From Candidatus Obscuribacteraceae bacterium (GTDB lineage: Bacteria; Cyanobacteriota; Vampirovibrionia; Obscuribacterales; Obscuribacteraceae): a DNA stretch of 64,000 nt. Under the pieces are notes generated by a model. It saw nothing but the letters and a program-made list of their open reading frames with translations, did not search any database and was not told where the DNA came from. The position numbers and the translations under genes are program-made. The stretch covers positions 224,001 to 288,000 of the forward strand of contig JBGAHS010000008.1 in assembly GCA_044226015.1 (NCBI GenBank), written 5' to 3'. Shown piece by piece: positions 1-47,222 of this stretch; positions within the stretch are counted from its first letter, which is position 1, and each line of letters starts with the position of its first letter.

Positions 1-3000
1 CACGCCATTCACGTTTGTGACTGCATTCAGCTTGCCATTGCTTGCTGACATAGTTAGGGATGCGGCTGTCACAGTACCGCTCACCGTGAGGTCACCATTC
101 GTGGATGACAACTTGGTGGTGTCAGTAATAGAGCCGAAGCTAGCACTTATTGCAAGCGAACCGCCAGTGAGCTGTATAGAGCTGCCATTGCTCAGCACTG
201 ATGAGAACGAAGCAGTCCCGCCTACTGTCGCGGTCAAGGAGTTGCTGCCGACGTTTATAGCGGACGAAGCATTCAGACCACCAGTAGAGCCTTGATTCAG
301 CTGAAGATTGTAGAGACCAGATACATCTAATACCGCATTGATATTGATGCCACCATTATTAGAGCTAGAACCGACAACCAGTGTGCCAGCCTTTATACTC
401 TGCAATTCGGCCGTGCTCAAATTCAAGCCAGCACCAGCAATTCCAAGCGTTATTGCTTGACTTGAAGATGCCGCAGAAATCGAAACAGTGCCTGCTCCAG
501 CATCAATGACTCCCGTACCGAGCACGAGATCATCAGCGCTAATAGAGATTGGGCTTGTTGTACTTACTAGTGAATTAGAACCAATGTTCAAGGTTCCTGT
601 GCTGGAGATTGTTATCCCTCCAGGTGCAGCTACACCAGAGCTGAGTGTCAAATCTCCGGTGTTGTTGAAGGTGAAGCTTCCACCTACCGTTGTCGTCAGG
701 CTAGACAGGGCGCTGGCGTTGTTCACAGTGATGTTACCTGTTGCAGATAGCACCATGCTGTTGCTTACATTAGTCAACAAACTGATGTTGCCGCCATTTG
801 CATTTGCATTCAATGAAGAAGCTGTGATGACACCAGAACTTGAGGCACTTGCGCCACTAATGGTTACCGCAGCCGAGCCGGTAGAGACGGCGCCAACGGA
901 CACTACTCCAGCCTGGGTTCCAGGCAAGAATGTTCCACCAGTGACCACACCATCTATGACATGCATCGCACCTGGAGAGGTGTTGGACAGCACGGCAGAG
1001 CTTGCTGAATTGAGGACTACAGCACCGCCATTGGTCGCGAGAATTGAGCTGCTGTTGATGTCACCAGTGCTGATTCCGTTGCCGATGATAGTTACTTTTC
1101 CGCCGGTTCCAGTACCACCAGAGGTATCAACATTTCCTATCTTCACAGAGCCGCCGTTTGCAACAGCAAAGAAGGAACCACCACTGTCTGAACCACTGGT
1201 AGTGAAGTTGACGTTCGGAACGTTAATGGAACCACTTCCACTATTTGGAGAGCTCAGCGTATAGTCAATATTATTTGGTCCTATAGTTCCAGATGTTGTT
1301 GGCGTGAAGTTGAAGCCAGCAATCAGGGTGAGGTCGCCGCCAGTGCCGCCAACGTTGGCAAGACTGATTGTCAAATTACCACCGCTGTTAATGATGTCTG
1401 TTGCGGAAAGTATAGCGATCGGTCCAGCAAAGCTTATCTTGGTCAGATTCCCCAAATCAATCGGTCCGGTGCTGTTCGCAATCGTACCAGTGAAAGCACC
1501 TGTGATAGAAAGCGTTGAATTCGGATTTGTAGTCTTGTGAATATCGAACTGCGATGGGTTACCAAAGAACTTACCGAGAGTCAAATTCACATGAGTGTAA
1601 TCATTCGGGAAGTCGTAGGTGGTGCCGTTCGTAATCGTTATAGAAGAATTTGGACCACCAGCGGCGGTGAAATTCACATCGCCACCAGGAGAACTGCCAG
1701 TTCCTACAAAGAATGTTTGATTGCCTGGTCCCAAAATCATACTCGGATGAACACCGGTATTGTCGGTGGCATTAAAGTTCATCTGTTGACCAGCAGCAAT
1801 TTTGAAGCTACCGCTGCCGTTGCCGGTAAGAAGCAAGTCTTGCCCTGGCGCAGTATCCACAGTGATGCCGCCAGTTGTGGCGACAATTGCCCCCGAGTTG
1901 CTGAGAACCATTTGCTGACTGCCAGAGCCATTCACCGTAGTGCCAAGCAATGTCACTGAGCTACCCGATAGAGTACCGCTTGCAAGAACGCTTATCTTAT
2001 CAGCACTCAATGTCACCGCATTTGTTGCAGAAACCGTACCTATATTCAGTGTAGAATTTCCGCTCAACTTAAAGGTGTTTGCAACAAGACCATCTACACG
2101 ATTAGCAGATACAGCGAGGTCGACACTTCCGCCGGTGGAGTTCAGGGTGAGCAGGTCAGCCGTGACTCGACCTGTTCCATTAATGTCACCTGAAGCTGAC
2201 TGCAAAGTAGTTGTATCCGTGGCAGAACCAAAGTCCACCGTGCTTGTGATGCTGTCACCATTGACGATGACCTTCGCAGCACTGCTGCTGATACCACCGA
2301 GGGTGACGGCTCCAGTCGAAGAAATGGTCAAATCCTTCGAGCCAATCGTGAGCGTATGCCCATCAGTATGTAATGCACCACCAGCTTGGAGAGTCAAGTC
2401 GTATCTCGAAGACAGATCATAATCTGAAGCTACTGTCAGCGACGCAGTATTGCTGAGAGAACCGACGATAAGCTTAGATGCAGTAATCGAATTGAGCAGC
2501 CCGGTGCTGAGGTCGAGTCCCCCCGCGCTTCCTGCAAATGTGACAGGTGAAGTGAGCGCACTGAATGTCACCGTGGCTGAGCCGGCATCGATAGGACCGG
2601 TTCCTGTAAAGTGATCGCTAACGATGCTGATATCAGAATTAGTGCTGCTTATCTTAAAACCATTTTCGTTGAAAGTATTTCCAGCGCTCAAAGACAGATC
2701 CAAGCCATTAGCAGCGAACAGCGCGGACGATAATGTCACGCCGCCATCATTCGTCAGGGTCAACTTGCCAGCACTGTTGCCAGAGAAGGCTGTCAGCGTT
2801 CCTACATTATTCACGGTAGCGTCGCCATTGCTACCCAAAGTGATGCTACCGCTGACAGCAGACTTGAAGTTTGCTTTTCCAGCACTGCTCACTTGCAGAT
2901 CAGCGCTGGTTAAGACGCCGGCAGTCTGTGCGATATCGGCGCTAGTGCTAGTCAACGTGAGTGTTGAACTACCCGCTAGATTGATGTTCTGATTTAGTGT

Positions 3001-6000
3001 GATTGAAGTAGCCTTGACGGAGACAGTGTTAGCAGAACCGCTAATCGTCTGCAGTGAAGCTGTGCTGCCCGACTCGATGTTCAGGTTATTAGCACCCATG
3101 GACAAGCTGCTTCCAGAGTTCATGGTCACAGCACCAGCATTGTATAGATTGAGAGCATAGGTCGGACTCAAACTACCGTAGAAGGTCAGGCTTCCTGTGC
3201 TGGTCTTATTACCAATGGTCACGCTCGAAGCATTAGTGATGTTGCTCATCAAATCGTTGCTAACAACGAAGGTCTCAGCGGTCGAACCATTCACCCCAAT
3301 GCTTTGATTTGCATTTGGCTGAATCAACACCGTTGAACCGCCAGCATTGACTGAAGACCCAGTCTTAAGTCCCAGTGAATTAGAGCTGAGTGAAACGCCA
3401 CCGCTGCCAGATTTAAGCGCTACTGCAACAGAGCTGTTGATCGCTCCAGAGGACACGGCATTGATACTGATAGAAGCACCGCTCACGTCACCAGACAGAG
3501 TCACATCACCAGAGCTCAGGGTATTCAGGACCACAGCACCGTTGCTGCTCACGGCACCGACTGCAACACCACCAGTGCTGGAGATAACCGTGACCTTGCC
3601 ATCACCTTGAACAGAGCCGATAGATACGCCAGATGCAGTACTGCTGCTGCCATCACTTGTTCCGATGAGAACAGATCCTGCCGTGGAGACTGCCGCGATT
3701 CCACTAATTGTGCCAGAAGCTATATTGATGAGGATGTCACCGCTGCCAGAGGCAACCTTAGCACCTGTACCGTCAATCTGATTGTTGCTGGCAGTGATAC
3801 TTATCTTGCTCGCAGCAGTCGCGTTGATGTCTCCATTGAGTGAAACACCATTAGTACCGCTAATGGTGATTGCTCCACTGCTCGCATTGATGTCTCCAAC
3901 GCTTACGAGCTTAGCACTCACATCGAGCTTGTTAGGTCCAACGCTGAGAGAAAACGCAGAGGTGTCAACCGTTCCAGCACTCTGAATTGTTAGATTCATT
4001 GAACCATTCTGAGTTCCAGCAGCTGCCAGCCCCGAATTCAACGAGCCACCTAGATTAACGGTGCCCGTGTAGCTGGTCGAATTTCCAACTTGCAGATTTT
4101 GTGCGCGAATTTGGTTCAATTGAGATTGGCTCAGATACGCACCCCCCAGGTCAACTGCAAGGTTATTGGTGCTGGGCGTGAATGTCACGTTGCCTGTATT
4201 GCCGGCATCAATCAATGTCGGCGTTGCTGCCCAGGAATTGAGCGAGTCAGCGTGAATATCAATGTTGCCAGAGCTATTTCTGATTATCGCTGCGTCCAAT
4301 TGCAAGTTATTGGCCACATTGAGTTGAATGTCGCCATCAGAACTGATTCCAGACGCGGTCAAAGAGCCTACACTCACTCCACTACCGACAAGCAGGTCGC
4401 CGGTGCTGGTAAGATTGGTGACAGCGGACGCACCAGTGGCACTGCTTGCAAGCGTCGTCGAAGCAGAGTCCAGAGTTAGCGGAGTCGCAGAAGTACCGAG
4501 AGAGGTGCCGAGCAAAATCACCTCCGGAGCAGCAAGCTTACCTGCACCAGCTGAGCTTGCTGTGATGCTTCCATCGATGGCATCGATACCGATTCCAGAA
4601 GTAGAGCTGACGGCTGTCACGCCGGAGAGTATCACGCCATGCGCACTGACAGTCACATCTCCATTTGAGCTGATGATTCCTTTTATAGAGTTGGCAGCAG
4701 CACTCGATGAATTCAGGTTCAAATTGGAAGCAGCCGAGCTAAGTTTTACAAACGCCGCTCCATTGCCAACGCTGGTGTTATTGATTGCGCCATCAACCTC
4801 AATCGTGCTGCCACTTGAGCCAACAGTGACATTGCCACCAGAAGCGGCTCCAGATGAAGCGTCCAGTCCTCCGTTGACAGTCACAGCGCCCGCAGCCGTC
4901 AAACTGATGTCAGCCCCAGAAACGCTAAGACTGCTTGTAGTGATAGCGCCTGTGAGCACCGATGCAGCGCTTGAGTTGAGACTGACAGCACCACCATCAG
5001 TGGTGACAGCAGCAGCGCTCGCACTGCTACCCTTCAGGTCTACTCCATTCTTAGAATCGATGGATACGGACTGCCCCGTTACAGAGGACAAGTCAATCGC
5101 AGCACCAGACAAATCAATGGTTGTCTTACCGATAGCGCTGATATCGAGACTGCCACCGGCGCTAGAAAGGTTGCCACCAGTTGTCTTAAGAGAGACATCC
5201 GCTAGGGAGTTCAAGGTTCCAGCATTACTGCCCATAGCGATAGAGCCAGCATTCACACCGATGGAATTTGCATCAACAGCTCCATTCAATGTGACATTGC
5301 CATTGCTGATGACATTTGAAGCGGAGAGGCTACCCTTAATGATGGTGCCATTGCCTATCATGACTGGTCCGTTGTTAAGTACCGGAGCCGCAGTCGTGAT
5401 GGAGAGATTTCCTGAGCTGCTGCCGCCAGTGAGCGTCGCAGATCCGACAGCGACACCTGTCTCACCAACAAGGGTGACGGAGCCACCTGCGCCTGCAAGT
5501 CCCTGCCCGACAGCCGTAATATCACCCAGGTTGACACTACCTTTGCTGGCATAAGCCTGCACAGAACCAGCATTGCCACCACCAGCGAAGCCACTGGTGT
5601 TCACATCGACATTAGCTAGATCGACACTACCAGTGCCGGCTGAACCCAAGGTGTAAACGGTGTTGTTGAATTGATAAGGAGCGGCAGCATTCGGACTGAA
5701 GTTGAAACCAGCAACCAACAACAAAGAGCCACCATCCGGATTTAGCGCATCACCAGAGAGGTCAATTGTGTCAGACGCGTTGGTGTCGATGATATCTCCA
5801 GCAGACAGAATAGCCAGACTCTGACCGTTGAACACGAGTCCGCCAACATTCTTCAAATCTAGCGCGCCACCAGTATTGTTAGCAATCGTACCGGCGCCAG
5901 CAGAATTGAAGATGAGCGGGTTGGCTGTGATAGAACCATTCACTATGAGAGTGCTTGCATTCACAGTGATCGTATTGTTGCCTACAACGCTGTCATTCAA

Positions 6001-21000: not shown

Positions 21001-24000
21001 CGTAGCGAGAGTTCCGTTGTTGGAGAGTGTGCCGCCAACTTCATTAACAGTTAAAATTCCAGCTGACTGAACTTTGACACCTGAAACAGTAATATCTTTC
21101 GCAGCACCGCCAACGACACCAATGGTTGTCGCACCACCAAAGGACAGGGTGCTTCCCGTATTAGCTTGTTGGAACGCGACACCACCCGAAGTGTTATCCA
21201 AAATCGAATAGGTACCGGTACCGGTGAATGTAGCTGTGCCAGCAACTCCGGACACGTTAACAGTTATTGCGCCACTCGAATTAGGAGTGATGCTGACATT
21301 CTTGTTACCAGTGAGAGTTTGATTCATTCCACTGGCGAAATTGACAGTGCCCCCACCAACTGGACTAAACCGCACTGAACCACCGACTCCCGAAGCGTCG
21401 ATAGCACCCGTTCCACTCACCGTGAAATTACCAGTGCTAGCAAAGGTGACCGAGTTCGCAGCAGCCAATGTGGATCGCAGAGTGCCACTGTTGACTACAG
21501 TTGCGCCGGAATTGGCTTGCAGCGTCAACTGAGCAGCACTTGAAACAGTGCCCGAGTTAGTAGTCGTGCCACCATTCTGCGTGATTACTGTAGCACCAGT
21601 GTTGGTCGAAGAAAGATTCGCACCAATGCTAATGTTGCCAGTCGCCGTGATGTTTGTTGGCCCTGCATGGTTGAGAATACTCGATGCGTTTGCTGCGTTT
21701 AGCGTGACCCCACCCGAAGCATTCTCTGTTATGTTCAAAATCCCAGTGCCAGAGAGAGAAGCTGTACCAGCAGCCCCTGATACATTTACAGTGAGCGAAC
21801 CTGCGCTGTTAGGCTGTATTGTGAGAGTTCTAGCTCCAGTATTCTGAGTCGTTCCACTGGCGAAATTAACAGTGCCGCCTCCAGCCGGAGAAATCAGCAC
21901 GGTGCCAGTACCGGCAGAAGCAGTCAGACTTCCCGTCCCACTAATCGTGAGGTTACTAGTACTCTGAACTGAGACAGCCGTTCCACCAGCAAAGCTACTT
22001 GAAACCGTTCCATTGTTAGTGAATGTTCCACCATTAGTATTGACTGTGATGACACCAGCGCTGTTGACTGTCAGCCCGGTGGCTGTCTGAATCGTACCAG
22101 TACTCGTGATGGCAGTTGTAGAACCGAAGCTAAGTGTAGACCCAGCGCTTGCAGTAGTGAAACTGACACCACCACCTGCACCACTATCGGTGACAGAAAA
22201 GTTGCCGGCACCAGTGAAAGACCCAGTACCAGCAGCCCCAGACATATTGACCGTGATGCTGCCGGCAGTCGATGGGACAATTGACAGGTTGCCGGTAACT
22301 GCCTGAGTGAGGTTGGCAGCTGCTAGGGATAAGGTGCCACCGCCGGCAGGGCTTATGCGCACGGTGTTGCCGGCTCCCGCATTCAAAGCGCCTGTAGTTC
22401 CCTGAACGGTAAGGTTACCAGTACTAGTCACTACGACATTGGTACCAGAAGCAGTGCTGGCGATGGTGCCGGAATTCGAGAGTGTACCACCGTTGACGTT
22501 CAGCGTGAACACGCCCGAACTACGCACAGTCATGTTGGCCGGAGTAGTTATGGTACCAGTCGTGGTAACAGATATTGGCGCCCCGAACGCGAGCGTACTA
22601 TTCACAGTTGCCTGCGCGAACGTGACACCACCACCAGCGCCACTGTCATTTATCGTGTAAGTTCCACCAGATAGAGTCGCAGTCCCAGCGGCTCCTGCTA
22701 CGCGCACGGTCAGTCCGCCAGCACTGCTAGGCAACATAGCTACAGTACTGGTACCAGCTACGGTCTGATTCGTCCCCGAAGGCAGGGTTATGGTGCCACC
22801 ACCGGTAGCTGTCATACGGACAGAACCAGAAAGAGTGTTTACATTTATATTGCCAGTTCCAGCTAATGTAAGATTGTTGCCAGAGCTTTGCATTACAAAG
22901 TTGTTTGCCGTGCCAGAACTATTAGCAATCGTACCGTTGTTGGTTATCTGTCCCGTTTGAGAGATATTAAAGGTTAAAGTACCTGATGTTTCTGAAATCG
23001 TGGCGCCGCTGCCGACAGATATCTGTCCGGTACCGGTTGTAGTAACGGTGGTGCTTCCGCCGAGCTGCAATGTGCCGTTGGTGAAGCCGACGCTATTGTT
23101 GGCGCCGTTCGCCGCGATTGTGTAGGAACCGCCAGTGAACGCAGCAGTTCCAGAAGCCGGAACATTCAAGGTAATGCTACCAGCCGCGACAGGGGCTACA
23201 GATAGCACCTTGTTAGAACTTATGCTCTGGTTTAGTCCATTCAAGAAATTGATGGTGCCGCCGGCGCCTGTACCTAGAGCGACGTTTGTGACTCCTGCAG
23301 AACTGCTCGCGTCTAGCGTTCCAGTTCCTGCAAACGAGAAGGAACCTGCGGTATTCTGAATAAGGATAGAATTCGCACTTGCGGAAGTAGAAACGAGGCT
23401 TCCATTGTTAGTAAAAGTACCGCCAACTTCATTCACCGTCAAAATTCCAGCGGACTGAACTTTAACACCAGAAACAGTGATATCTTTTGCGGCACCGCCA
23501 GCAACACCAATGGTCGTAGCACCACCGAAGGAAATAGAGCTTCCAGCATTTGACTGTTGCAACGTAACCCCACCTGATGTACTATCTGAGATGGAATAGG
23601 TTCCAGTTCCGGTGAACGTCGCAGTCCCAGCCGCTCCCGATACGTTGACAGTTATTGCACCATTAGTGTTCGGAGTGATACTGACATTTTTATTCGCAGT
23701 GATGGTCTGGCTCATTCCGCTAGCAAAGTTTACCGTGCCACCACCAGCAGGGCTTATGAGCACAGAGCCACCGACACCAGAAGCATCTAGCGCACCAGTT
23801 CCACTCACACTGAAGCTGCCAGTGCTTCTCAAAGCCACCGAGTTAGCCGCAGCCTGAGAAGAACGAAGAGTCCCGTTATTAATTATGGAAGCACCAGTAT
23901 TGGCTTGAATCGTCAGCGTACCAGCGCTCGAAACAGTACCCGAGTTAGTAATTTTTCCACCGGTCTGCGTGATCGTCGTCGCACCAGTGTTGGTTGACGA

Positions 24001-26850
24001 AAGATTCGCGCCGATGCTTATGTCGCCAGTAGCAGATATGCTGGTAGGACCAGATCGAGAAAGTACACTTCCAGAATTGCTGGCATTGAGAGTCACCCCA
24101 CCAGTTGTGTTCTCAGTGATGTTGACGGTTCCAGTGCCTGACAAAGAAGCCGTACCAGCAGCACCCGAAACATTGACCGTAAGCGCGCCCGAAGTATTCG
24201 GCTGAATGGTTAGCGTCTTCGTTCCTGTGTTTTGTGTAGTACCACTTGCGAAGTTAACCGTGCCACCACCAACCGGAGAAATCAACACAGCTCCAGTCGC
24301 GGCGGACGCAGTAAGCGAACCTGAACCAGCTATTGTCAGATTGCCAGTACTCTGCAGCGAGACAGCAGTGGCTCCAGCCAAACTACTGGATACCGTCCCA
24401 TTATTAGTGAACGTTCCACCGTTTTCATTTATAGTGATTAAGGCACTGCTCGCTAGAGTGGTAGCTGAGTTGACAGTGATGGGACCGGTGCTAGTCACGG
24501 TCGTTGCACTCGACGTCGTAAGTGTGTTACCGCCGGATAGGGTCACGCCGCTGCCCCCACCGCTGTCCTTCACGAGCACAGCACCGCCAGTGTTCAAGGT
24601 GGTAGCACCGGCCATTTGCACAGTGAGCAATCCGGCGCTGCTCGATGAAATCTCCAGATTCTTGCTATTGCTAATTGACTGATTTGTTCCGCTGGCAAAA
24701 CTCAACGTACTGGCACCAGGAACAGCGAACTTCACAGACCCGAGCGTACTATTGGCATTCATAGTACCGGTTCCAGCAATGGTCATACTGCTTGCACCAA
24801 CCAAACTACTTTGCACAACAATCGAGTTAGCTGCATTCAAATCGCTTTGCAACGTTCCATTGTTGGTAAATGTTGATCCATTTTGGTTTACGGTAACCGC
24901 ACCAGCCGTAGCCAATACGGTAGCGCCGGAATTAATGGTCACAGTCTTAGAACTCGTAATATCCACCTTGTTAGCGGCAGTGATGTTAGCACCGATAGTA
25001 GTGGCACCAGTCCCAGCGGTCAAAGTAACATTTCCGCCGCTTGTCACGGCATTGCTCAAGTTAATGGCACCTGCGTTAGTGGCACCAACAGTGGGAAGAG
25101 CAGAAAGAACTCCGTTGGTTATCGTGGTGGTACCACCAACAAAGCTAGCATTGGGGGCAGCAGCTGCGATGGTCACATTTCCGGTGCCGCTAGTCGAAAT
25201 GACTCCTGTCCCCGAGATCCCCCCAGTACCGGTCAATATCAGAATATTGCCATTTACAGCGCTCACCGTTCCTGCCGCGAGATTTATAGAACCTGTCCCA
25301 TTAGCCAGCAATGTGACATTACCGCCGGCCACCGCGGACAGGTTCAAGCGGTTACCCGCAGTTCCGATACTACCGTTGCCAGCGCCCGTGATCGTCAAGG
25401 TCGCGGTCGTGTTACCAGCGGTGTTGTTAAAAATCACATTGTTAGACGAGCCAGGAGTCGCAGTAAACTGTAGCCCTGCTCCGATAAAGAGATTCGCACC
25501 AGCAAGTGTAGATATAGTGCGGGTGCCATTGTTGGTGACATTGCCAGACGCCACGATGGCGATATCACCAGCGACCCCGGTGAGACTACCGAATATGTTG
25601 ACTGCGCCACCATTGTTGTAGTACGTAGGGTCGCCTGTGAGCACCTGATCGCCGACAGTGAGCAACCCGTCAGTTACAGAAATATGCACTTCGGAGCCGT
25701 AATTACTCAAAGCTCCTCTGATTTCGTCCATGTGTATGTTCATGGATTTGCCCTGGACTTTAATGCCACCGTCAGCCAGGAGTCGACCGTCCATCATCAA
25801 GACATTGGCGCTCTCCAACTCAGAAGGAAGAAGGTTCGAGCGCACGTTCACAGTGCCTGCCTCGAAGAGTCCGGTCTCCGAATTGATGCCACCCAGAGCT
25901 TCGATGACACCAGCCTTGTTGCTTAGAAACAAATCTGTGCTGGCACTGAGAGCATTGAGGTTTATCGAATTTAGCGCCTGAATCAAACCAGAATTCACAA
26001 TTGTTCCGGTTCCAACATTCAAGTTGATGTTCTGAGCTGAGAGCACAGCCTGACTAACACTGCCACTTATGTTACTGAGGGAACCAAGCGTTGCAATATT
26101 CAGCGTGCCAGGCGTCGTAATCATTCCCTGATTGACGAGGTTGCCTGCGATATTCAAGTTCATGCCCGAGGAAGAATATACACCAGGCATCGAATAGCCA
26201 GAAGGCAGGTGGGCACTGAGTAGACCACCAATACCTATGTTGAGACTACCAAGATTGAGAACCGCAGCCATGTTGGCAGAGTTTTGCAAGGTGTACATAG
26301 AACCCAGGATGTTGAGTTCACCGCTAACATTCAATGGTGTCGACGAATTGAAACCGACGGCGTGAAGAGCAACTCCAGCAGGAATAGAAAGGGCTTCGAA
26401 ATTTTGGACATTCTTGGAATTGAGGGTGAAACTCCCACCAACTGCCGCTCCTTGATTGTTCAAAACGAGTGTCTGGTTACCGCGCATCGCTTCGAATACG
26501 GCGACATACTGCGAAGGAGTGACAGCCGCGCCCGGCATCACAGTCATTGTGGTACCACCAGATATGACACCGTTGTGAGCACTGCCACCGACCGTGATGT
26601 TCACCGGCGCAGTGTTTTGCGAGCTAAAACTCGCCGAAGTCCCCGACAAATTGAGATTGTTTCCGGTACCAGAAACCGTCCCGCCACTAGGAACCGAATA
26701 TGGTGTCGCTCCCGGACGAGACTGCGCTAATGTCTTGATGGGTGCTACGTAAGGCCCGATGAGTAGCATCGAAGACATTATCCACACCAACTTGTGCCCA
26801 AGACTGCGCTCTCCAAAAGCGGCAGCCTTAACTAAACGGGTTCTTTTCAT
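1..26850 (-). CDS. Giant (>=8950 aa, 3'-truncated by window edge) G/S/T/N/A-rich beta-strand repeat surface/secreted protein, filamentous-haemagglutinin/adhesin-like
   Basis: ATG at 26848-26850 (minus) translates MKRTRLVKAAAFGERSLGHKLVWIMSSMLLIGPYVAPIKTLAQSRPG..., an extended signal-peptide-like N-terminus. The same frame is still open at base 1 (...LNAVTNVNGV). The ORF track lists no terminated ORF in this frame, and the main series of antisense shadow ORFs keeps one phase from 17 to 25730, so no internal stop or frameshift is evident. Confidence 0.92.
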   Translation of the reverse strand, partial: MKRTRLVKAAAFGERSLGHKLVWIMSSMLLIGPYVAPIKTLAQSRPGATPYSVPSGGTVSGTGNNLNLSGTSASFSSQNTAPVNITVGGSAHNGVISGGTTMTVMPGAAVTPSQYVAVFEAMRGNQTLVLNNQGAAVGGSFTLNSKNVQNFEALSIPAGVALHAVGFNSSTPLNVSGELNILGSMYTLQNSANMAAVLNLGSLNIGIGGLLSAHLPSGYSMPGVYSSSGMNLNIAGNLVNQGMITTPGTLNIATLGSLSNISGSVSQAVLSAQNINLNVGTGTIVNSGLIQALNSINLNALSASTDLFLSNKAGVIEALGGINSETGLFEAGTVNVRSNLLPSELESANVLMMDGRLLADGGIKVQGKSMNIHMDEIRGALSNYGSEVHISVTDGLLTVGDQVLTGDPTYYNNGGAVNIFGSLTGVAGDIAIVASGNVTNNGTRTISTLAGANLFIGAGLQFTATPGSSNNVIFNNTAGNTTATLTITGAGNGSIGTAGNRLNLSAVAGGNVTLLANGTGSINLAAGTVSAVNGNILILTGTGGISGTGVISTSGTGNVTIAAAAPNASFVGGTTTITNGVLSALPTVGATNAGAINLSNAVTSGGNVTLTAGTGATTIGANITAANKVDITSSKTVTINSGATVLATAGAVTVNQNGSTFTNNGTLQSDLNAANSIVVQSSLVGASSMTIAGTGTMNANSTLGSVKFAVPGASTLSFASGTNQSISNSKNLEISSSSAGLLTVQMAGATTLNTGGAVLVKDSGGGSGVTLSGGNTLTTSSATTVTSTGPITVNSATTLASSALITINENGGTFTNNGTVSSSLAGATAVSLQSTGNLTIAGSGSLTASAATGAVLISPVGGGTVNFASGTTQNTGTKTLTIQPNTSGALTVNVSGAAGTASLSGTGTVNITENTTGGVTLNASNSGSVLSRSGPTSISATGDISIGANLSSTNTGATTITQTGGKITNSGTVSSAGTLTIQANTGASIINNGTLRSSQAAANSVALRSTGSFSVSGTGALDASGVGGSVLISPAGGGTVNFASGMSQTITANKNVSITPNTNGAITVNVSGAAGTATFTGTGTYSISDSTSGGVTLQQSNAGSSISFGGATTIGVAGGAAKDITVSGVKVQSAGILTVNEVGGTFTNNGSLVSTSASANSILIQNTAGSFSFAGTGTLDASSSAGVTNVALGTGAGGTINFLNGLNQSISSNKVLSVAPVAAGSITLNVPASGTAAFTGGSYTIAANGANNSVGFTNGTLQLGGSTTVTTTGTGQISVGSGATISETSGTLTFNISQTGQITNNGTIANSSGTANNFVMQSSGNNLTLAGTGNINVNTLSGSVRMTATGGGTITLPSGTNQTVAGTSTVAMLPSSAGGLTVRVAGAAGTATLSGGTYTINDSGAGGGVTFAQATVNSTLAFGAPISVTTTGTITTPANMTVRSSGVFTLNVNGGTLSNSGTIASTASGTNVVVTSTGNLTVQGTTGALNAGAGNTVRISPAGGGTLSLAAANLTQAVTGNLSIVPSTAGSITVNMSGAAGTGSFTGAGNFSVTDSGAGGGVSFTTASAGSTLSFGSTTAITSTGTIQTATGLTVNSAGVITVNTNGGTFTNNGTVSSSFAGGTAVSVQSTSNLTISGTGSLTASAGTGTVLISPAGGGTVNFASGTTQNTGARTLTIQPNSAGSLTVNVSGAAGTASLSGTGILNITENASGGVTLNAANASSILNHAGPTNITATGNISIGANLSSTNTGATVITQNGGTTTNSGTVSSAAQLTLQANSGATVVNSGTLRSTLAAANSVTFASTGNFTVSGTGAIDASGVGGSVRFSPVGGGTVNFASGMNQTLTGNKNVSITPNSSGAITVNVSGVAGTATFTGTGTYSILDNTSGGVAFQQANTGSTLSFGGATTIGVVGGAAKDITVSGVKVQSAGILTVNEVGGTLSNNGTLATTSASASALLIQNTAGSFSMTGTGTLDASNSVGAVNIALGTAAGGTVNFLNGMNQTVSSSKIVSVAPLAAGSITLNVPASGTAVFAGGGYTIAANGANNNVSFTNGTLQLGGSTGVTVSGTGQINVGVGATLSETVGTLTMTVSPTGQINNNGSVVNSSGTANNVVMQSSGNALTLTGAGTINVSSGSGSVRLTATGGGTISFASGMNQTITGTSNVSMVPSSAGALTVRVAGAAGTATFTGGSYSIADSGAGGGVTFAQANANSTLALGGAVAVTTTGTITVPATMTVSSTGVLTLNANGGTLSNSGTIASTASGTNIIVASTGNLTVQGLTGSFNAGSSNTIQLSPAGGSTLFLPATNFTQNITGNLSIVPSSSGALTVNLSGAAGTAAFVGGSGYTVADSGAGGGVSLTTASSGSVLSFGAAAALTSAGTIQTASGSTVASSGILTVNANGGTLSNLGTLRSTSNVANSLVIQSTGSLTVSGNGTLDANTVNGSIRYSPGGGGTLNFVAGYAPIVTGNKPISISQNGAGTLNINVSGAGNASLTSTAAYTISDSSGSGITFSASTAGNTLTLPGATTVTSTNDITMNTGAVLASSGTLTVNENGGTLTNNGTLRSTSGTVGAITIQSTGSLTLAGTGTLDANSGSGSVALRPAGGGTLNLAVGLSQALTGNRNLTVSPATAGALNVNVSGGSGTATFTGTGTYTFNDFGGAQGVNFSRTSGNAILSLPGVTNINSVGGTIGISNVSVSSTGNLTLSSTNLTNSGTIQSSANVLLNVNGGTFTNNGSIVSTSGAGNNVQVTSTSGFTLAGTGNIDVSSGAAGSILLQPSAGNTLNLAAGMNQTITGNKSVSITPTSGALSLNVSGAGTARFTGGTFSLTEGTAAAGISFTQSNSGNVLSLGGNSTVSSSGSIHVNGVTVKSATGSLMLNVDGGALNNNGTIGSDSGLANNLIVQSTSNLTIHGVGTFDVSSGAGSVRLAVPASGLVNFLFGTDQSVTADKTVLISPSSAGAITVLVIGGAGSGGFSSGVINIDDGGSGAGVTLTTTHQPSVLLLGSSSSITSTGTVTVGAGSTVSSSGLLTFNLDGGTLVNSGVIASTAGAGANILLQSSSGFTLQGNGSFNASSGVGDVNLSATAGGVINLEAGLSQSLQGNLVFTPSDNSNLNVNIKGAGTASFTGGTLYTFLAVGANNINFTGDNSGNQLSLGGNTAVTVNGGNVNVTSGVTLSSSGTLTVNANNNGTLTNNGTLVSTAGTAGNLVIQTDSSLTLAGSGSLNASAGGSVAITAPGAGIINLASGLNQTIVGNRNVSISTSSAGTLNLNVVSGIATFTGSGNYSISDGGGAGVNLTRTSSGSTLNFGGNTSVTSSSDISLQNGLTLQSAGTITINENGGKFSNNGTVKSTNGTAGAITIQSSSGLTLAGTGTLDAATGSGSVAIKPAGASTLSIESGTVQTIAGGAGLAISSGSAGGLKVNVSGPAGVASFVGTGATTITDDGSSGGISFTQANSGSTFSVDGALTISSSGDITIDGPGSGVTVSSGGNLTINENGGTLQNGGTLSSVANNANSISIQSTGDLTLRGTGSLNASGALGSIKIQSGANGTVNFESGMNQTVLSGKQVSIGSSSGSSKFNVSGAAGTAQFTGGSFTVTEGTAGSGVSFSKTAAGSSSIQFGGDTVVSVSNSSAITVNNGVSVGSSGSLTLSASNSTINNNGTLFSTAGIADAITLTSSPSTSLTLSGIGTLDANSGSGSVLINAGSNLILSNGLSQSIAGGKNVDVLSQAGSLNVDVNGSAAFNGNGVYTFAAASGQSITISSTGGSLSVGGNLTLDASTGNLTLSDVTVGTVNGDAQVNVGSQFDIGASTLQSGKSNGSINVSGSTGALTLVGNGSLKLTQNAANNKILVSSGVSGTGTLSFAGNLIMDVGAGTTAVDAISIQAASVNLATGTTQTFANGANATLAPGAASSLSVIAQGAAGTATLAGSGIVTVQSNGVAESVSFSASSSPSVLQVNGGLTVNSGASGSVSVNSVELTSGSSLLINTSSLTNSGTISSSAAAGSISVQSTGDLTLSGNGVYRDTQNAALNNISFIAGPSGTGTLTITGDNTLDVGNATSALDAISFEASTINLQSGSTQTVSNDASVSFSPGSSSSLKVNVSGLSGTASFVGLGKYSVSSNGSGNTVEFASDAASSTLLFGGALSADAGSTGTVSVDAGLTLSSAGSISVNAGTIANNQALVSTGSNSLILLQNLGGNLVLDGNGLYQISTDSANNFIQVIAGATGAANLSLNGSSTFDVGNANVSNNAVQFTAGQINIKVGTTQTVLNNSALTLKSGASDLNLLMLGGTGASNFIGASAYTLTATGNLSFTGLATPAQFNFDNNLKVQAGTNSSITVSSGVTLNASGSMTLDAGTIFNNGSTISSSAIGAVVLQNTGGASSLTLAGNGNYQTSSNNAANKILVQSGSAGAGQIFVTGSNTFDVGTGTSSANAVEFQANSIDLSTGTTQIIANGAKLTISLSGAAATAINLSGAAGNVDFTGASSYTINSNAATNTLDFSSDNASNLRFDNALSVTNTADVSIASGLETSAALTLSSLSNNGGIFVTGHVSGATGVNVSSNGSGIIDIADGAFVSSTNASISFKSGALDSNSSGAINAGTGVVSLLQNGSNTDVSINGGSATYGVSAATLANITASKLVIGDSNTGAVTQVGSADFSVPGPGSYDLVINGASYDGTGSSMLIGSKNLTITASTGAAVMGAVTGTSGFVDVSASNDAITLTDNLSAGKVTLLSGVNIQVSSDVTVQTFGAAGNDIVLNMLAPASLVQTLGSNLSLMSAGALSVSGGVDTTQIVGGGGDFTASAADGTLSISGVINSYGNGAIGVNNGGAIDLSASNGSISVGAISSDGGPSSGNAGLISVVASGAVTVAGAISAKSVSASGGIVTLKSSGSSIQVDGSINNQGAASGPSILISSASASPLQIGGSSGVNKIAGLISSNGSVEIQNSGDIQLFSAGTTISASASVGQISLVSTNGAISANSSTEGGLSASAVLLSAKTGVGSVTGAVPISLTGAGNTKVAVQVTGPNSEVYLLSTAAGLTTDALSSASTGSIIGVNSTGDIRLDVNAGSTLTVSSGNTISTSGSGSTITINADKLVFGSSTPSIDAGSSGTIIITPTTLSQNITIDNTGTQYLTTTNSQLTQFQALNVQIGNNSFAGDITVGAGGLLLAGNDGSVAAGTAPGAFNITFISSGKFSSKNVLIDEGVNDFTVKVGGTVELGAVGVQPNASGSVSISGNGVTLYDNINAGSLSIDPGTGTLVQNGGTLSSNSLSINANPNDNVVLNIAVSDLTVTQSLAGTGSITITNSKELLSNGISTAGLGGFNYTGTADGGTTLTNSITTDGPLSITNTGNNAQITINGALSGSSVSLSSTGTGDISGTGTVTAKNDLTVNSPNGDVNLNVATPYITVTQDINGTGSVTITDSVALIGNGASTAGSGGFFFTDTAGGAGAINITNTITTKGDLTLSGAGGTDSGIVLGADISGAAVTLLSTGTGTITQATPGLDVTATSSLTLTAGSGNVDLNVTTPSLTISQSGAGAVNIIDSQALSTTGPITAGSGGLSINVTAGGAGAITTGASISSTGAVVLTGVGGSDSGIVLGGDVTGKSVTLTATGSGNIGSTVAVDITASNGDVQLTANNLTFANSSTIDAGSQSVYIQPTANQSIAVNGAAIGTLTIGQNLVDNITAGQLVIGNTSSTGAIQVNGAGDTMNANFDLVFLNNPTTGGSFTNNGTIALNANDLSVTVGGSITSGAVTGTGSIVSLTGTDIALSGAIDSSGGKVTLSATDGGVTQSAGVVSAAELTINATDTVANLNIAVPFLTISQTGSASVTLTNSVALTGNGVISVGSGGFFFTDTADGGINLTNTITSSGPVSLVNTGNNAGIAIGAAVSGSIVTLTSTGTGDISGAGVVTGSSSIALTSPEGSINLSVDTPVLSTSQNVSGSGSVFIQDASSVQVGADSTAGSGGFTLISNGAGPVGISTAGKINSSGSIDLQALGIGAGITIGKDISGSDVSLTASGGDVSVGTSVSVSGTNSVIVSMQGGTLSNNGTLTSSSGGILIDSSSDLTFSGTGSLSSATGTSIILPGNSTLSLPSNLMQTVTGDLSMGVSTPGSLSVDVTGAAGTVQFIGGGNYKISSSGANALNFNQDNSGSGISFGGSLNLTSSGDINNNGLTLASSDVMVINENGGQLLNNGTLRSTAGVANDILITSSSSLSLAGVGNLDASAGNGSVKISIAGGSSFKFETGSVQTLVGDKDLTIETNSPGNMFISTGGATGNATFAGTGKYTVQNLQGGIAFAQFSSDSSITFGGDTTINNANDLISIQGLTIVSNKTLTVNENDGIVFNNGVLRSGAGTPNDLVIQSSGSLFYLGTGKLDAAGSALIGVGAAEVLNLQAGTTIDMVGNKDLTLSSPGLLTVNVAAASGTVSFVGTGKYTVSGVGVNLSSDFASGVLSFGGDTEINGGTGTVALDTKTEARSAGDMMLDASAIDNAGLVSSTKSSGLITLSNSAGDLTVGGGGVFTNTTNSLGNQIVISANSGKSAVTFSGDNTFDVGNANTAANAIEILATQINLPAGTTQTIASDANVTMHPGSSSDLNIVVTGGPGNASFVGNGTYSISSVGSGNGVSFKSTLSNQLSLGGDVNVTSSSTGTIHVDSTFTLDSANGAVMMDASNIDVAGTVSSSSSTGLIVLQNSSGDLTVGGGGSFIETQNSASNQIIISAGSAGTGKITVLGDNTFDVGTATGTADAIQFVGSQLNLPVGSQTFLNNPNVIIQPGSSSSISINVSGPGVANFVGTGTYTIQSVGAANSVNFGGTAASQVNFAGDLNVQGGSDVSVGSGITVSSDNSMTVSALTIHNSGKLSANNLGLNVNDTLVSNNGVYTADAIAVNSASGKSLTILGNATFDATNGGQTDLNSNGDITFGDGVTTATQLFNGDANFNTALGKGTVTVTLNDSVVGNNTITVNASTLIVNGSITANPLIFNSAGAGTIANNTGGALDLKNVGGLVFNGQSLAILSAGDIIDTNASDTIDLSGDALNPDGGSLLLVAGFNFSPNAAAPYQFNNTVYTLGSAGTGSVDLANVDVNTSGFAGGGNAGSVQAYASKGSVNLGDITAVGQGLAGAGGSVTLVGETGVAVGSATLTGGSSSGNLSITTAAPVLNNGPVMIGNGTIIKGSLSASNVISNGNVTLNGAVDANSIGVNAGSIAMGSNAGTLNSLADVSLKTTGGNLSSAGGSLDISAIGKTTIDLSGAAIDLSSVTGQSVSIDSKNGVDLKGSSASAAAVTTDGGAVSLNSSAASVLTGAITTSSLSVSGADISLTAAGAVTVNGGLDASSGAASGGNVTVGSSGSTIEVDGAINNTSVGNGAAFVKLSSAASNLNLNSSSAAANSIKGIISSNGDVTVSAHGVILSGVTAVSSTSGIGIDAIDGSITASSAGAGKLAAPEVILLGTSLGTSATPLTLDSASTTLASSATGASAVTNLTSTGDLLVGSGVSVGSLTASGISSDGDIQLNVANNLQLDAAIIRNSSGNIDIHADSLNSWAATPTLIDAGNTGNVTFTPSTNNLAVDLGGAYLSQSQLNQIRAQNLQVGNSTSYTGTVNLGGSLNSGLAAAGTQNGSMNLTIQSAGTVDTSAFSLSVGPNKLDVSAKLVSVGDINASSGAITISGTNGVSLNGDINATAASKISITASNNQIDGTGAKVASGSGDILINIASGTISGIAAVSTAGSVLIGTSDGSSSTASGVSIGSVQGDGKVTVISSTGGVAVGAVSSNGAVVLNTLSSGDVTLSGDVSGASISINAVSSGAINSSVAVALKSGSGGVSLSSNSLGLKTGSSVNAGGSTVLIQPNANQSIGVNGSTAETFVVSNDLMSNITNASSVTIGNKTSTGSLTFYGSLSPTYALNLYNAGAVTMNSGSSLSMGANNLNIESGSTASLQTISGSANTVSVKATSITLNQNINLAGSSTLTLTSTSADIAQTAGVLTSADLQVSSAGKANFKSAVSGSITLGSNGDATVNNVGTLTAFSGNSAGKLTLTNDGGVTLSSALFAANGLDLSLSAGNTFNENGFKISSTNSDISIVSDHFTGTGPIDAGSATVTFSALTSPVTFAGSAGGLDLSTGLLNSITASKLIVGSLSNTASLTVASDYDLSSRYDLTLQAGGALHTDGHTLTIGSKDLTISSTGAVTLGGISSSAAKVIVNGDSITSTVDFGSATDTTTLQSASGDINGTGRVTADLLTLNSTGGSVDLAVSANRVDGLVANTFKLSGNSTLNIGTVSATNAVTLSADKISVLASGTLSGSSVTLLGTTVNGSGSQQMVLSNSGAIVATTGGITVDTAPGQDLLLTGNGSGSFKIAAGQQMNFNATDNTGVHPSMILGPGNQTFFVGTGSSPGGDVNFTAAGGPNSSITITNGTTYDFPNDYTHVNLTLGKFFGNPSQFDIHKTTNPNSTLSITGAFTGTIANSTGPIDLGNLTKISFAGPIAILSATDIINSGGNLTISLANVGGTGGDLTLIAGFNFTPTTSGTIGPNNIDYTLSSPNSGSGSINVPNVNFTTSGSDSGGSFFAVANGGSVKIGNVDTSGGTGTGGKVTIIGNGISTGDINSSSILATNGGAVVLNSASSAVLSNTSPGAMHVIDGVVTGGTFLPGTQAGVVSVGAVSTGSAAVTISGASASSSGVITASSLNANANGGNISLLTNVSNSMVLSATGNITVNNASALSSLTTTVGGSFTFNNTGDLTLSSGVAAPGGITISSTGTLNIGSNSLVSTTSPISISADDLVLGTGVIDAGAGTVSISAASSSQAITLGIAGAGLNLSTAELQSIKAGTLVVGSSSNNGGININAVLDVSGLYNLQLNQGSTGGLNASSAINVGSNSLTATVGGTASFSSVLSNGSSIQLTGGSLAISASFGSITDTTKLSSTNGDLTVSGTVTAASLTMSASNGKLNAVTNVNGV
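15800..24900 (-). repeat. Intragenic ~155-175 aa repeats (NNGT-anchored), including a 2388-bp (796 aa) higher-order duplication at ~19620-24470
   Basis: Matching anchors are offset by exactly 2388 nt, e.g. GACTGAACTTT at 21065 and 23453, and GTGAC at 20234 and 22622 within matching context. (T/S)NNG(T/S)(L/I/V) motifs recur every ~460-520 nt. Boundaries are approximate. Confidence 0.85.
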
Positions 26851-27776
26851 GGGATACCTAAAAATTTGTCGACCAAATAATTATATGTAAAACATGCGAT
26901 TTTGGCTAGCAAACAGTTAGTTACGCCTTCCCCCAAAAGTTGCTATCTGAAGGTTTTTCCAGCCACTGTAGCCTATTGTCAACACACCCAAAAACTACCC
27001 CTCTAATAACAAAAGAAAAGCGCTGAACGCCCTAAGCATCCTTTAGAACACATCACCGAAGCCGAAATCCCACGTATTGCAAGGTCCCCGGGATTCTAAA
27101 ATATGTAATCCAGCCAACAAACCAGGCGTATTCCGCATAGACAATATCTAACAACAAAAACTGTTCGCAACAACAGCCTTCGGCGCTCTCTAATTCCGGA
27201 TTTGTGCGACTTTCATTCTGCTCGCCCATTCAGATGAGTTGCCCACCAATCTGCTTAAGTCTTTGCCTGAAAGCTCCAGAAGGGTGGTCACCAAACAAAC
27301 TCTTCGGCTAGATTCGATCTGCCAACCTACACACATCTACTTGAAGCAGCATCGCAGCTTACAAAGATGAATCAGGAGCTGTGCAGAAGCTGAGCGCAAA
27401 ATGTACCCATTTTGGTGCAACCTTATGTTGGAATTCCTGTGAAAAAAGTTGGGATTGTCCAGCGCATGGCTCTCGCTTTTCAGGATCAGGTGAAGTTATA
27501 ACTGGTCCGGCAAACGAAAATTTGCCCGAAAGCAATAGCCCCTCCTAGCCCAAAAGGTGGCTTATGTAATTCACGTTCTATTGCAGAAAACCAACTACGC
27601 ATAGAAAGTAATGCACATTGCCACCACAAACCGTGATGAAAATTTAGACAATAGTCCGAAAGCGCATAAGTTTCTTCGGTTTCGTGAAATTAGATTGTAG
27701 GATTGATTTATGAACTACAGCATGCCGAATTTCTCGGGCACGATTAGCGCACCGGCTGTTAATCTCAGGAAGTCGA

Positions 27777-45782: not shown

Positions 45783-46156
45783 TCAGCCCGAGATTCCTTA
45801 AAAGCGACTCACAATCCACTCAATTGATGGGTTCGCCTCCTACTAGCAGACGACCATTGACAAGTCTTGGCACTGGAAGCAGCTGGTAGCAGCACAATAT
45901 GAGCATTAGAGTTCCAAGCATAGCACCTAGCATTATTCACCAAACGCATAGCCCCAATGTGAACTATGCATTGGACGGATGTCACCTCTTGACCTATTCT
46001 AGAGTGACCAACTGACGAACGAGTTCAGTTGCCTTTGTAAACCATAAACCAAGAACGAACGAACTCGCGTTGAGTTTCGTGCCGTCTAACTTATGTCGCA
46101 AACAAAGAAAGCGCAAAAGCGCTCTAAAGGAAGAATGGCGCAAGCCCGCGCAGAGG

Positions 46157-47221: not shown

Positions 47222-47222
47222 A

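Follow-up and report, generated by a model that had tools for sequence, protein, structure and literature searches.

The window analysed, 64,000 nt long, corresponds to C12:224001-288000 in the assembly of an Obscuribacterales genome and carries at its left edge a giant open reading frame on the minus strand (window 1..26850). Direct translation gave 8950 aa without a stop, as the earlier note on this DNA had claimed, and the frame continues for 6,056 nt beyond the edge to a TAA at C12:217944, the full protein comprising 10,968 aa with a mass of about 1.05 MDa. The suspicion that it might exceed 10,000 aa was therefore correct, and the full translation holds neither an in-frame stop nor a frameshift, with 188-1068 stops in every one of the five remaining frames across this DNA. 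The reported charge-poor composition was borne out (G+S+T+A+N about 63%, D+E+K+R about 6%), and there is one cysteine in the entire protein. The description of the frame as hidden has to be withdrawn: it appears in the ORF listing once open-ended ORFs are allowed, so that its absence from the original track is most simply a window-edge effect.

The features of the giant gene are, in the order of translation and all on the minus strand, a likely Sec signal peptide (aa 1-42; 26725..26850), a conserved N-terminal domain modelled as a capped parallel beta-helix (aa 43-407; 25630..26724), the bond Asp407-Pro408 in the motif LxLGxxxLxGDPT (25627..25632), a candidate self-cleavage site or structural cap, and directly after it the first copy of a 140-aa module (aa 408-545; 25216..25629). 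An HMM of this last region revealed that it recurs as the GTIAN module, with a second copy at 5458..5892 (GTIAN at aa 6987) and a third at 1075..1488 (GTIAN at aa 8455), the copy that had been seen before. Degenerate repeats of about 150-160 aa each, 35-50% identical, occupy aa about 600-3800 (15451..25050), and a 796-aa tandem duplication relates aa 810-1608 to aa 1606-2404 (24423-22027 and 22035-19639). Extension past the window located, in aa 8951-10968, the end of the putative solenoid, a second Asp-Pro (D10644, C12:218921), then some 150 aa of low-complexity linker, and a C-terminal domain of FecR fold (about aa 10797-10953), recognized by folding and structural comparison. The earlier note had used the distance from the GTIAN module to the C-terminus as a yardstick, which proved wrong: this distance is 2,514 aa from the third module of the giant and 1,416 aa in the second giant, hence the earlier arithmetic (about 9,900 aa) fell about 1,100 aa too short. 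The second family member of the window is represented by the C-terminal 3,984 of its 5,181 aa (52044..63998, minus strand; start at C12:291589), with a GTIAN module, an ADPP motif at about 53130, and the C-terminal domain at about 52107-52571. A third member, a paralogue of 14,391 aa, lies 560 nt from the giant gene. No terminator was found between the two convergent giants, no transporter gene adjoins the giant, and Rfam gave no match on the window and three flanks. Upstream of the giant gene, 927 nt (26851..27776) extend to a divergent CheB-methylesterase gene.

The giant ORF is confirmed as a real, unbroken frame. The genome is metagenome-assembled, and an assembly artefact, or an open frame that is not expressed, had to be weighed. 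The gene has no exact internal repeat of at least 20 nt, and even its largest internal duplication (aa 810-1608 vs 1606-2404) is 70% identical at the DNA level. In sequencing run X2, which represents a strain from a different study than the possible source, one contig spans 7001-24084 without a break, showing 108 substitutions and no gaps, and another covers 24058-26990 with 10 substitutions and no gaps; the misassembly proposed as a refuting outcome is thus argued against by an indel-free match in an independent strain across 20 kb, a check whose scope is window 7001-26990. Among the 40 differences listed of 136, none creates a stop, and 18 of the 39 differing codons among those listed change the residue, which speaks for a loose constraint on the passenger and, to that extent, for the artefact. 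On the other side, the giant's final ~3,500 aa run collinear to the 14,391-aa paralogue, with identities of 31-57%, and other genomes hold relatives of 7,000-9,500 aa, such that an artefact is extremely improbable. Runs X3 and X4 matched short pieces of the gene only. The two runs that hold the giant gene came from a bioreactor and from activated sludge.

The Obscuribacterales, non-photosynthetic relatives of the cyanobacteria, are, as far as is known, uncultured or barely cultured sister lineages of the oxygenic forms. In the genome studied here, 50 paralogues of 1,400-14,391 aa occupy 7.4% of the DNA, and neither Pfam nor NCBIfam has a model that recognizes this surface-protein family above background. 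The C-terminal domain of the family is present in 71 of the 81 order genomes searched, with 1 to >40 family copies per genome. The shared plan starts with a likely signal peptide and a beta-helix that terminates in a near-invariant Asp-Pro; a repeat passenger comes next, then often another Asp-Pro, and last the FecR-fold C-terminal domain, which is missing from two giants; some homologues carry inserted beta-propellers. Pfam, run over the whole protein in pieces, gave no match, that is, no toxin, enzyme, FHA-2, VWD or SPM domain, and NCBIfam, run on parts of the giant and 41 N-termini, returned TIGR01731 alone, in 4/41 N-termini. Among 240 flanking ORFs no shared neighbour genes were found beyond common kinases and response regulators, and no upstream motif common to the family was significant after correction. 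Trees of the N- and C-terminal domains of 46 paralogues have 8 of 21 supported splits in common, and the three nearest relatives of the giant are identical in both; the overall correlation of N- and C-domain distances, at 0.18, is no higher than shuffled data reach (maximum 0.27) and neither shows nor excludes domain shuffling. The size of the giant is by itself unexceptional, and it is the gene family that constitutes the main finding. SwmB of Synechococcus, a protein of type I secretion, is not known to carry a Sec signal. In strain WH8102 it measures 10,791 aa according to the accessible part of its description (PMC4949707), so the earlier label of a very large bacterial protein is fair, although with SwmB and the 14,391-aa paralogue at hand a record size is not. 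SwmB resembles the giant in size, phylum, and its nature as a repetitive surface protein; it is a single-copy protein, in contrast to the about 50 paralogues here.

Read by eye, the N-terminus of the giant combines a basic n-region, an apolar h-region, and TLA|Q, and comparable basic-apolar-AxA|Q/E starts occur in most paralogues, followed in 28/46 by an RPG motif; aa 1-42 are thus likely a Sec signal peptide. The predicted model of aa 57-597 is a beta-helix (pLDDT 92, pTM 0.91) with the HMW1 pro-piece (Z 18.2), Vag8 (18.2), and EtpA (17.6 and 17.2) as best structural matches. HxuA follows twice at Z 16.3, so that the top six comprise five TpsA chains and the autotransporter Vag8, with tailspikes and lyases at ≤14.8; the entries 2ODL, 8CPK, and 4I84 are the best matches, at Z 16-18. 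At the level of sequence the likeness is faint. The TPS domain PF05860 was found neither in this genome nor in any of 41 N-termini (control: 18/61 phylum-sample genomes positive), the NPNG motif in none of 46 family N-termini, and hhalign against cyanobacterial TPS profiles reached 81% probability across 77 columns only; the fold match may therefore reflect generic beta-helix likeness. Weak haemagglutinin-repeat matches appeared in 4 and 5 of 41 N-termini in two profile searches, the N-domain HMMs did not match cyanobacterial TPS proteins of the filamentous-haemagglutinin type, and a PDB sequence search with the N-terminal profile gave one weak match (E 0.003). The mature N-domain measures 365 aa. 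The HMW1 pro-piece, for its part, has 373 aa and is removed at 441/442 by a mechanism called undefined in the accessible part of the source (PMC3983070); its end aligns structurally near aa 530 of the giant, away from D407.

The first Asp-Pro is found in 46/49 paralogues, 69/70 library homologues, and 46/51 further homologues, and in the predicted model it sits in a turn between two strands (model position 351-352). D407 is the sole charged residue conserved at ≥80% in the N-terminal alignment, whose rows were picked for having D407, the unbiased counts being 46/49 and 69/70. The second Asp-Pro occurs in 22/46 genomic giants and 20/37 homologues; a higher count, 78/85, is an overestimate, ADP-bearing members having supplied most of the search profile. 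Both motifs follow the pattern [LI]x[LI]Gxxx[LIV][TS][GA]DP after a last strand, and in the passengers Asp-Pro is under no general selection (101 observed vs 104 expected). One EtpA-like TpsA protein carries WLLDP right after its secretion domain, where EtpA itself has WLLDS, and 7/25 cyanobacterial TPS proteins have a similar Asp-Pro motif 525-595 aa beyond the NPNG-type motif. Self-cleavage at Asp-Pro is described for VWD GDPH and FrpC SPM proteins in the parts of the sources available (PMC10880436, PMC7078468), which share a conserved Asp-Pro in an exported protein, GDPT resembling GDPH; the giant, in contrast, lacks the His of the motif and a VWD or SPM domain, and its cleavage is putative. 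The model sets the Asp-Pro into a well-ordered turn within a continuous helix, which a purely structural role would explain equally well, yet where Gly or Asn could serve, an invariant Asp is out of the ordinary. Cleavage at D407|P408 stands just short of an even chance, and release by cleavage at the second Asp-Pro is appreciably less likely. Should an Asp-Pro after the secretion domain self-cleave, it could explain the undefined way in which HMW1 loses its pro-piece.

The C-terminal 185 aa are predicted to adopt a confident fold (pLDDT 92.6), a soluble beta domain plus helices that ends in three helices. It matches FecR-type regulators alone, in their periplasmic domains (Z 8.8 and 8.5; the next match has 3.9), the likeness extending over about 100 residues of the FecR/PupR CJM subdomain (4M0H, 6OVM; rmsd 3.9 and 3.0). 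Foldseek gave the FecR type probabilities of 0.96-1.0 but E about 0.01, and the ESM Atlas returned a FecR cluster at 0.91; PF04773 (FecR) did not match the domain, and PDB sequence searches with its profile yielded 0 matches. In contrast to FecR and PupR, the giant lacks the cytoplasmic anti-sigma domain, the membrane helix, and the STN subdomain, and the domain is placed on giant passengers. The same domain is also present in small proteins with a signal peptide and in a histidine kinase, there in the N-terminal and likely exported part, a distribution in keeping with a periplasmic location. By analogy with the anchors of HMW1, HxuA, and CdrA, it may serve as a periplasmic plug on a flexible linker, a reading we hold tentatively. 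A classical autotransporter (type Va) was rejected, as the C-terminus is a soluble beta domain with helices, shows no 12-stranded beta-barrel, and has no Pfam or NCBIfam match.

Between the two modelled ends (aa 57-597 and the last 185 aa), the passenger consists of imperfect repeats with two-residue periodicity and a weak haemagglutinin-repeat likeness. The long beta-helix envisaged by the earlier note is accordingly supported by the confident model for aa 57-597, whereas over the remaining 10,000 aa it is inferred from the composition, the repeats, and this weak similarity. The protein very probably is exported and forms a beta-solenoid over most of its chain. Were the solenoid continuous, assumed values of 18-26 residues per rung would give it a length of 200-280 nm; scaling from the Chlorobium models would give 130-160 nm. 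N-glycosylation sequons are not clearly enriched (300 vs 234-306 in shuffles), and an HMW1C search gave no match, its control likewise being blank.

Regarding export, TpsB (PF03865) gave no match in this genome and was not found in the 81 order genomes searched, 10 of which gave weak partial matches that fell on their Omp85; in the phylum sample, 65/101 genomes were positive. A single Omp85-family gene is present in 58 of the 59 order genomes with a match, its number constant while the family copy number varies, a point against export by Omp85; in its favour, no type V barrel besides this Omp85 was found in the genome studied here. A type I adhesin of the RTX/LapA/SwmB kind was rejected on the absence of a Pfam match (RTX/Ig-like), the signal-like N-terminus, and the absence of a recurring transporter neighbour; TolC-family genes are present elsewhere in the genome. 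Against the directly established background of the ORF, the family, its conserved motifs, and the unsuccessful search for TpsB, with the beta-helix of aa 57-597 and the FecR-type fold as predictions, our best explanation, at a probability of roughly one half, is a Sec-exported, TpsA-type beta-helical surface filament that would exit by the sole Omp85 and be tethered at its C-terminus. The 10,968-residue protein would cross the inner membrane by the predicted Sec route, leave N-terminus first through the Omp85 barrel as a filament of the TpsA (filamentous-haemagglutinin/HMW1) type, and have its N-terminal pro-piece cut away at the conserved Asp-Pro bond, while the FecR-fold domain would stay in the periplasm and tether an adhesive surface fibre. 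We know of no case of BamA alone exporting a separate passenger of such size, and Omp85 as the exit, taken by itself, is possible at somewhat less than even odds.

An alternative exit for the same filament would be a secretin of the PilQ/GspD type (type II secretion or type IV pilus), with the FecR-fold domain as an export signal read by STN. Two secretins and 8 PF00437 ATPases over the cut-off are encoded in the genome, whose only STN domain sits on the PilQ-like secretin; moreover, the C-terminal position of the domain on cargoes of 200-14,000 aa is as expected of a sorting signal. Type II secretion, however, carries folded cargo, and a 1 MDa rod folded in the periplasm is hard to imagine; the N-domain is the more TPS-like end, and an N-terminal secretin query, a single sequence, remained blank in 3/3 f2 and 2/2 g5 genomes with 6-18 family matches. 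Even with the TonB-transducer signalling-domain binding site formed by the PupR fold and STN subdomain, as described in the accessible part of PMC7186176, this route appears unlikely. Slightly less probable still is an unrecognized translocator or very divergent TpsB acting in trans, the Asp-Pro motifs then being structural caps only that end solenoid segments. The pattern common to both motifs after a last strand, the lack of a shared neighbour gene, and a genome completeness of 92% are in its favour, but in 58/59 order genomes with a match a second Omp85-family gene was lacking, no obvious translocator candidate emerged from a crude barrel screen of this genome, and the invariant Asp would be odd in a cap. 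Returning to the Omp85-exported filament, an extended version is distinctly speculative and improbable: a TpsB-free branch of type V secretion, in which one housekeeping Omp85 would export up to 50 filaments (≤1.4 MDa) self-clipped at Asp-Pro and linked to the surface by a reactive C-terminal Asp, with a co-opted FecR domain that would anchor them and report on them in the periplasm, including via the histidine kinase.

Of the known systems, the HMW1 subfamily of TpsA proteins (HMW1, EtpA, HxuA, CdrA; type Vb) comes closest in the likely Sec signal, the beta-helical N-domain of about 370 aa (Z 16-18), the long imperfect repeats, an Asp-Pro after the N-domain, and a C-terminal element positioned like the periplasmic anchors described in the available part of PMC5422565. 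The giant differs in having neither PF05860 nor NPNG, no TpsB found in the order, no HMW1C match (control blank), a folded FecR-type domain where those proteins have a cysteine hook, about 50 dispersed paralogues, and 1.05 MDa vs 100-650 kDa. Cyanobacterial 'filamentous haemagglutinin N-terminal domain' proteins belong to the same phylum, are multi-copy, and in some cases have a late Asp-Pro motif in the repeats; they differ by canonical TPS domains, mostly 800-2,000 aa, and a TpsB common in the phylum sample. Very long predicted beta-helical filaments are also described for Chlorobium Cag_663/Cag_665 and Omnitrophota giants (10.1101/2023.11.21.568195, 10.64898/2026.03.19.712371); the former lack known signals and adjoin TolC, the latter have many membrane spans and SecA-like domains, and by description in the accessible parts of these sources both lack the N- and C-domains of the present family. 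What defines TpsA-like filaments is their pairing with TpsB, and an order-wide TpsA-like family without detectable TpsB means that either the essential Omp85 can export free passengers or another translocator exists; the former would have a bearing on the origin of the chloroplast protein channel from Omp85.

As to function, a role in adhesion or as a surface coat in flocs and biofilm is probable. Contact-dependent weapons or predation fibres, in the manner of CdiA or the transferred giants of Chlorobium, would accord with the many strongly divergent passengers per genome, the inserted beta-propellers, weak VirB10-like matches, and the ties of giants elsewhere to predation or cell contact in the accessible parts of 10.1101/2023.11.21.568195 and 10.64898/2026.03.19.712371. 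They are nonetheless highly unlikely in view of a C-terminus that is conserved rather than polymorphic, the lack of toxin, enzyme or FHA-2 domains in Pfam, and the lack of a recurring small immunity-like gene downstream. Literature searches on giants, adhesins, secretion, and haemagglutinins of Obscuribacterales, Melainabacteria, and Vampirovibrionia, covering few subscription papers, left the family undescribed, as did a search for a FecR domain joined to filamentous hemagglutinin, though preprint supplements such as the protein tables of 10.1101/2023.11.21.568195 may list these genes. Database labels of family members read 'hypothetical', 'S-layer family', or 'adhesin HecA-like', and the family yields two new domain models.

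The minus-strand frame opening at ATG 26850 of the window runs to base 1 through 8950 codons without a single stop, as the earlier note had claimed, and its charge-poor G/S/T/N/A/V/L/I composition is as described there; the remaining five frames of the same DNA contain 188-1068 stops. Continued in the assembly beyond the window edge, the frame terminates at C12:217944 and encodes a protein of 10,968 aa (≈ 1.05 MDa), which bears out the expectation of a length approaching or exceeding 10,000 aa. The description of the ORF as hidden does not hold, since it is listed once open-ended frames are allowed; most simply, the window edge had truncated it. The gene contains no exact repeats of at least 20 nt, and its largest internal duplication is 70% identical, which makes repeat collapse or expansion in the assembly unlikely. 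As to the misassembly considered in the earlier note, four sequencing runs were compared with window positions 7001-26990 of the gene. Run X1, the possible source, matched this stretch exactly in two contigs, and two contigs of X2, from another study, spanned it without gaps and with 118 substitutions, while X3 and X4 provided short pieces only. Among the 40 X2 differences listed, 39 codons were affected and 18 residues changed, with no stop created. The giant ORF is real, and an artefact is extremely unlikely. As a size record it is ordinary, being close to SwmB (10,791 aa, PMC4949707) and belonging to the "large" class (at least 10,000 aa), below the "giant" class (at least 30,000 aa), of 10.1101/2023.11.21.568195, in the available main text of which the string "obscuri" is absent. 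Giants of Chlorobium are covered in 10.64898/2026.03.19.712371.

Residues 1-42 resemble a Sec signal ending in TLA|Q, a pattern judged by eye. Residues 57-597, folded together with 41 paralogues, gave a parallel β-helix (pLDDT 92, pTM 0.91) with the HMW1 pro-piece (Z 18.2), Vag8 (18.2), EtpA (17.6 and 17.2) and HxuA (16.3) as best structural matches, followed by curli, pertactin and tailspikes (Z at most 14.8). This N-domain showed no PF05860 match and no NPNG motif, and matched cyanobacterial TPS-domain profiles only weakly (for features of the TPS domain, see PMC10284417). The likeness to TpsA adhesins lies in the predicted way of working; by two defining tests, the TPS sequence family and TpsB, the protein falls outside, and it is therefore not classed as a TpsA member. 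The protein is neither an autotransporter nor a giant of the RTX/type I kind, and it is not a FecR regulator either. The N-domain is followed by Asp407-Pro408, which sits in a turn joining two strands of the model and is conserved in 46 of 49 paralogues of at least 1,200 aa, in 69 of 70 library proteins bearing the N-domain, and in 46 of 51 further homologues, the five misses being partial HMM matches that stop short of the motif. Cyanobacterial TPS proteins (L104-L133) show a recurring Asp-Pro motif 525-595 aa beyond an NPNG-type motif (7 of the 25 read).

The passenger consists of degenerate units of ≈ 155 aa (aa 600-3800) and ≈ 185 aa, a 796-aa duplication, and three copies of the GTIAN module, a repeat of the 140-aa stretch next to Asp407-Pro408 on its C-terminal side. 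Pfam gave no match on the passenger, and the leads from the ESM Atlas (S-layer, haemagglutinin repeat) all scored under 0.9. The low-complexity repeat region terminates at ITADPP (D10644), a second Asp-Pro of the same motif shape as the first, and this ADPP-type motif is found in 22 of 46 giants of the genome. The homologue P0179, 1,029 aa long and encoded on a 40-kb contig, has the Asp of the second motif as its last residue and is either a natural mimic of a cleaved product or a broken gene. Two other family members, P0158 and P0175, carry YVTN/lactonase-type β-propellers inserted in the passenger, so the scaffold is able to carry cargo domains. The passenger of the second giant (window 52044-63998, minus strand) differs from that of the first in its glycine-rich repeats, which are ≈ 400 aa long and contain poly-Gly stretches and runs of aromatic residues.

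A variable linker of ≈ 150 aa separates the second Asp-Pro from the C-domain, whose model (pLDDT 92.6) matched only FecR-type anti-sigma periplasmic domains (Z 8.8 and 8.5; next 3.9; for the PupR fold, see PMC7186176). One or two copies of this domain make up small signal-peptide proteins (C7:384131, C8:140694, C12:547997, C4:63168, C6:360494, C11:1021431), and it also occurs in the N-terminal, likely exported part of a hybrid histidine kinase (C6:296884-300375, plus strand; kinase and receiver domains judged by eye), a possible sensor of the giants or of their partner. Two 3,000-aa giants (C10:429710-420507 and C10:433146-442262) have the N-domain and no C-domain; the F-x-P-I-x-F-type motif, with which the C-domain of other members starts, is followed in them by a terminal acidic tail.

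An iterated HMM of the last 200 aa matched 65 ORFs of the genome; members of at least 1,400 aa number 50 (48 with the C-domain, 2 with the N-domain only) and total 201,665 aa, which accounts for 7.4% of the genome. About 27% of contig C12 is taken up by seven family genes, among them the longest ORF of the genome, a 14,391-aa paralogue (C12:174215-217390, plus strand; partly L001/L002) that lies tail to tail with the giant gene, its end 560 nt away. The two proteins are collinear over their N-terminal 600 aa and roughly their C-terminal 3,500 aa, and by sequence their middles appear to have grown independently. The C-domain profile matched 71 of 81 genomes of the order, with 1 to over 40 matches per genome. 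In a large library clustered at 50% identity it matched 2,499 clusters, the best 150 of which include the genome's own proteins. For the class outside this order, a single-sequence query of nine genomes did not find the domain, and when 150 further genomes of the phylum were searched with the N-terminal profile, none gave a match. The taxon is inferred from those relatives that carry names, Ca. Obscuribacterales or Melainabacteria. Our literature search found no published description of the family; Melainabacteria MAGs have been noted as rich in unassigned proteins, the family not being named in the accessible part of that source (PMC13104272). The family is unannotated, order-wide and genome-filling, TpsA-like with a new combination of end domains and no detectable cognate transporter. 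A second class of giants (2,000-7,800 aa; C12:364608, C9:341383, C11:421578, C5:113809, C11:1122756 and others) is charged, lacks a signal-like start and is loosely interrelated; these are possibly substrates of another secretion system.

TpsA proteins are recognized and exported by TpsB (PMC5422565), for which the genome yielded no match (PF03865). Across 81 genomes of the order, PF03865 gave 10 weak partial matches, on the single Omp85 wherever coordinates were comparable; it matched 65 of 101 genomes of the phylum, mostly strongly, so the search works. Omp85 was matched in 59 of 61 order genomes, exactly once in 58, and the copy in the present genome is BamA-like. The only gene families found repeatedly next to the giants are common kinases and regulators. 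Alternative exits comprise two secretins, TolC-family proteins (29 matched stretches that represent about 14 genes) and weak VirB10-like matches; export by a secretin route seems doubtful. The genomes of family f6 (1.7-2.2 Mb) carry a TpsB-like gene in 33 of 33 cases, and PF05860 at E 1e-15 was found in none of 20; judged from these matches, they would be the mirror image of the Obscuribacterales, a transporter without a recognized passenger.

We propose that the giant is a TpsA-like filament exported via Sec, which may cross the outer membrane N-terminus first through the sole Omp85. The N-domain would nucleate folding and then be removed at Asp407-Pro408, while the folded FecR-type C-domain, on its flexible linker, would retain the filament; where the second Asp-Pro is present, release could occur there. 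The pro-piece of HMW1 is presumably cut at the Asp-Pro of a WLLDP motif, which occurs at the matching place in an EtpA-like TpsA; EtpA itself has WLLDS there, and the 2ODL chain ends six residues past the last aligned position. As a precedent, HMW1 loses a 373-aa pro-piece (69-441) by an undefined mechanism (PMC3983070, PMC8262952), its C-terminus remaining in the periplasm (PMC3983070, PMC8262952, PMC5422565). VWD domains and FrpC are established examples of Asp-Pro self-cleavage (PMC10880436, PMC7078468). On the other hand, structural alignment does not place D407 on HMW1 residue 441, the C-domain is absent from two giants, and the Asp-Pro motif may alternatively be a solenoid cap, all of which count against the proposed mechanism. 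That the motifs are structural and export relies on an as yet unknown translocator is unlikely in our judgement, and a role as a weapon is highly improbable.

Within the same window, positions 46070-51908 (plus strand) hold an operon-like cluster of a PvcA/DIT1 isonitrile synthase, a TauD/PvcB dioxygenase, an FAD monooxygenase, an MFS exporter and an ATP-grasp ligase, likely an isonitrile-type natural-product pathway.
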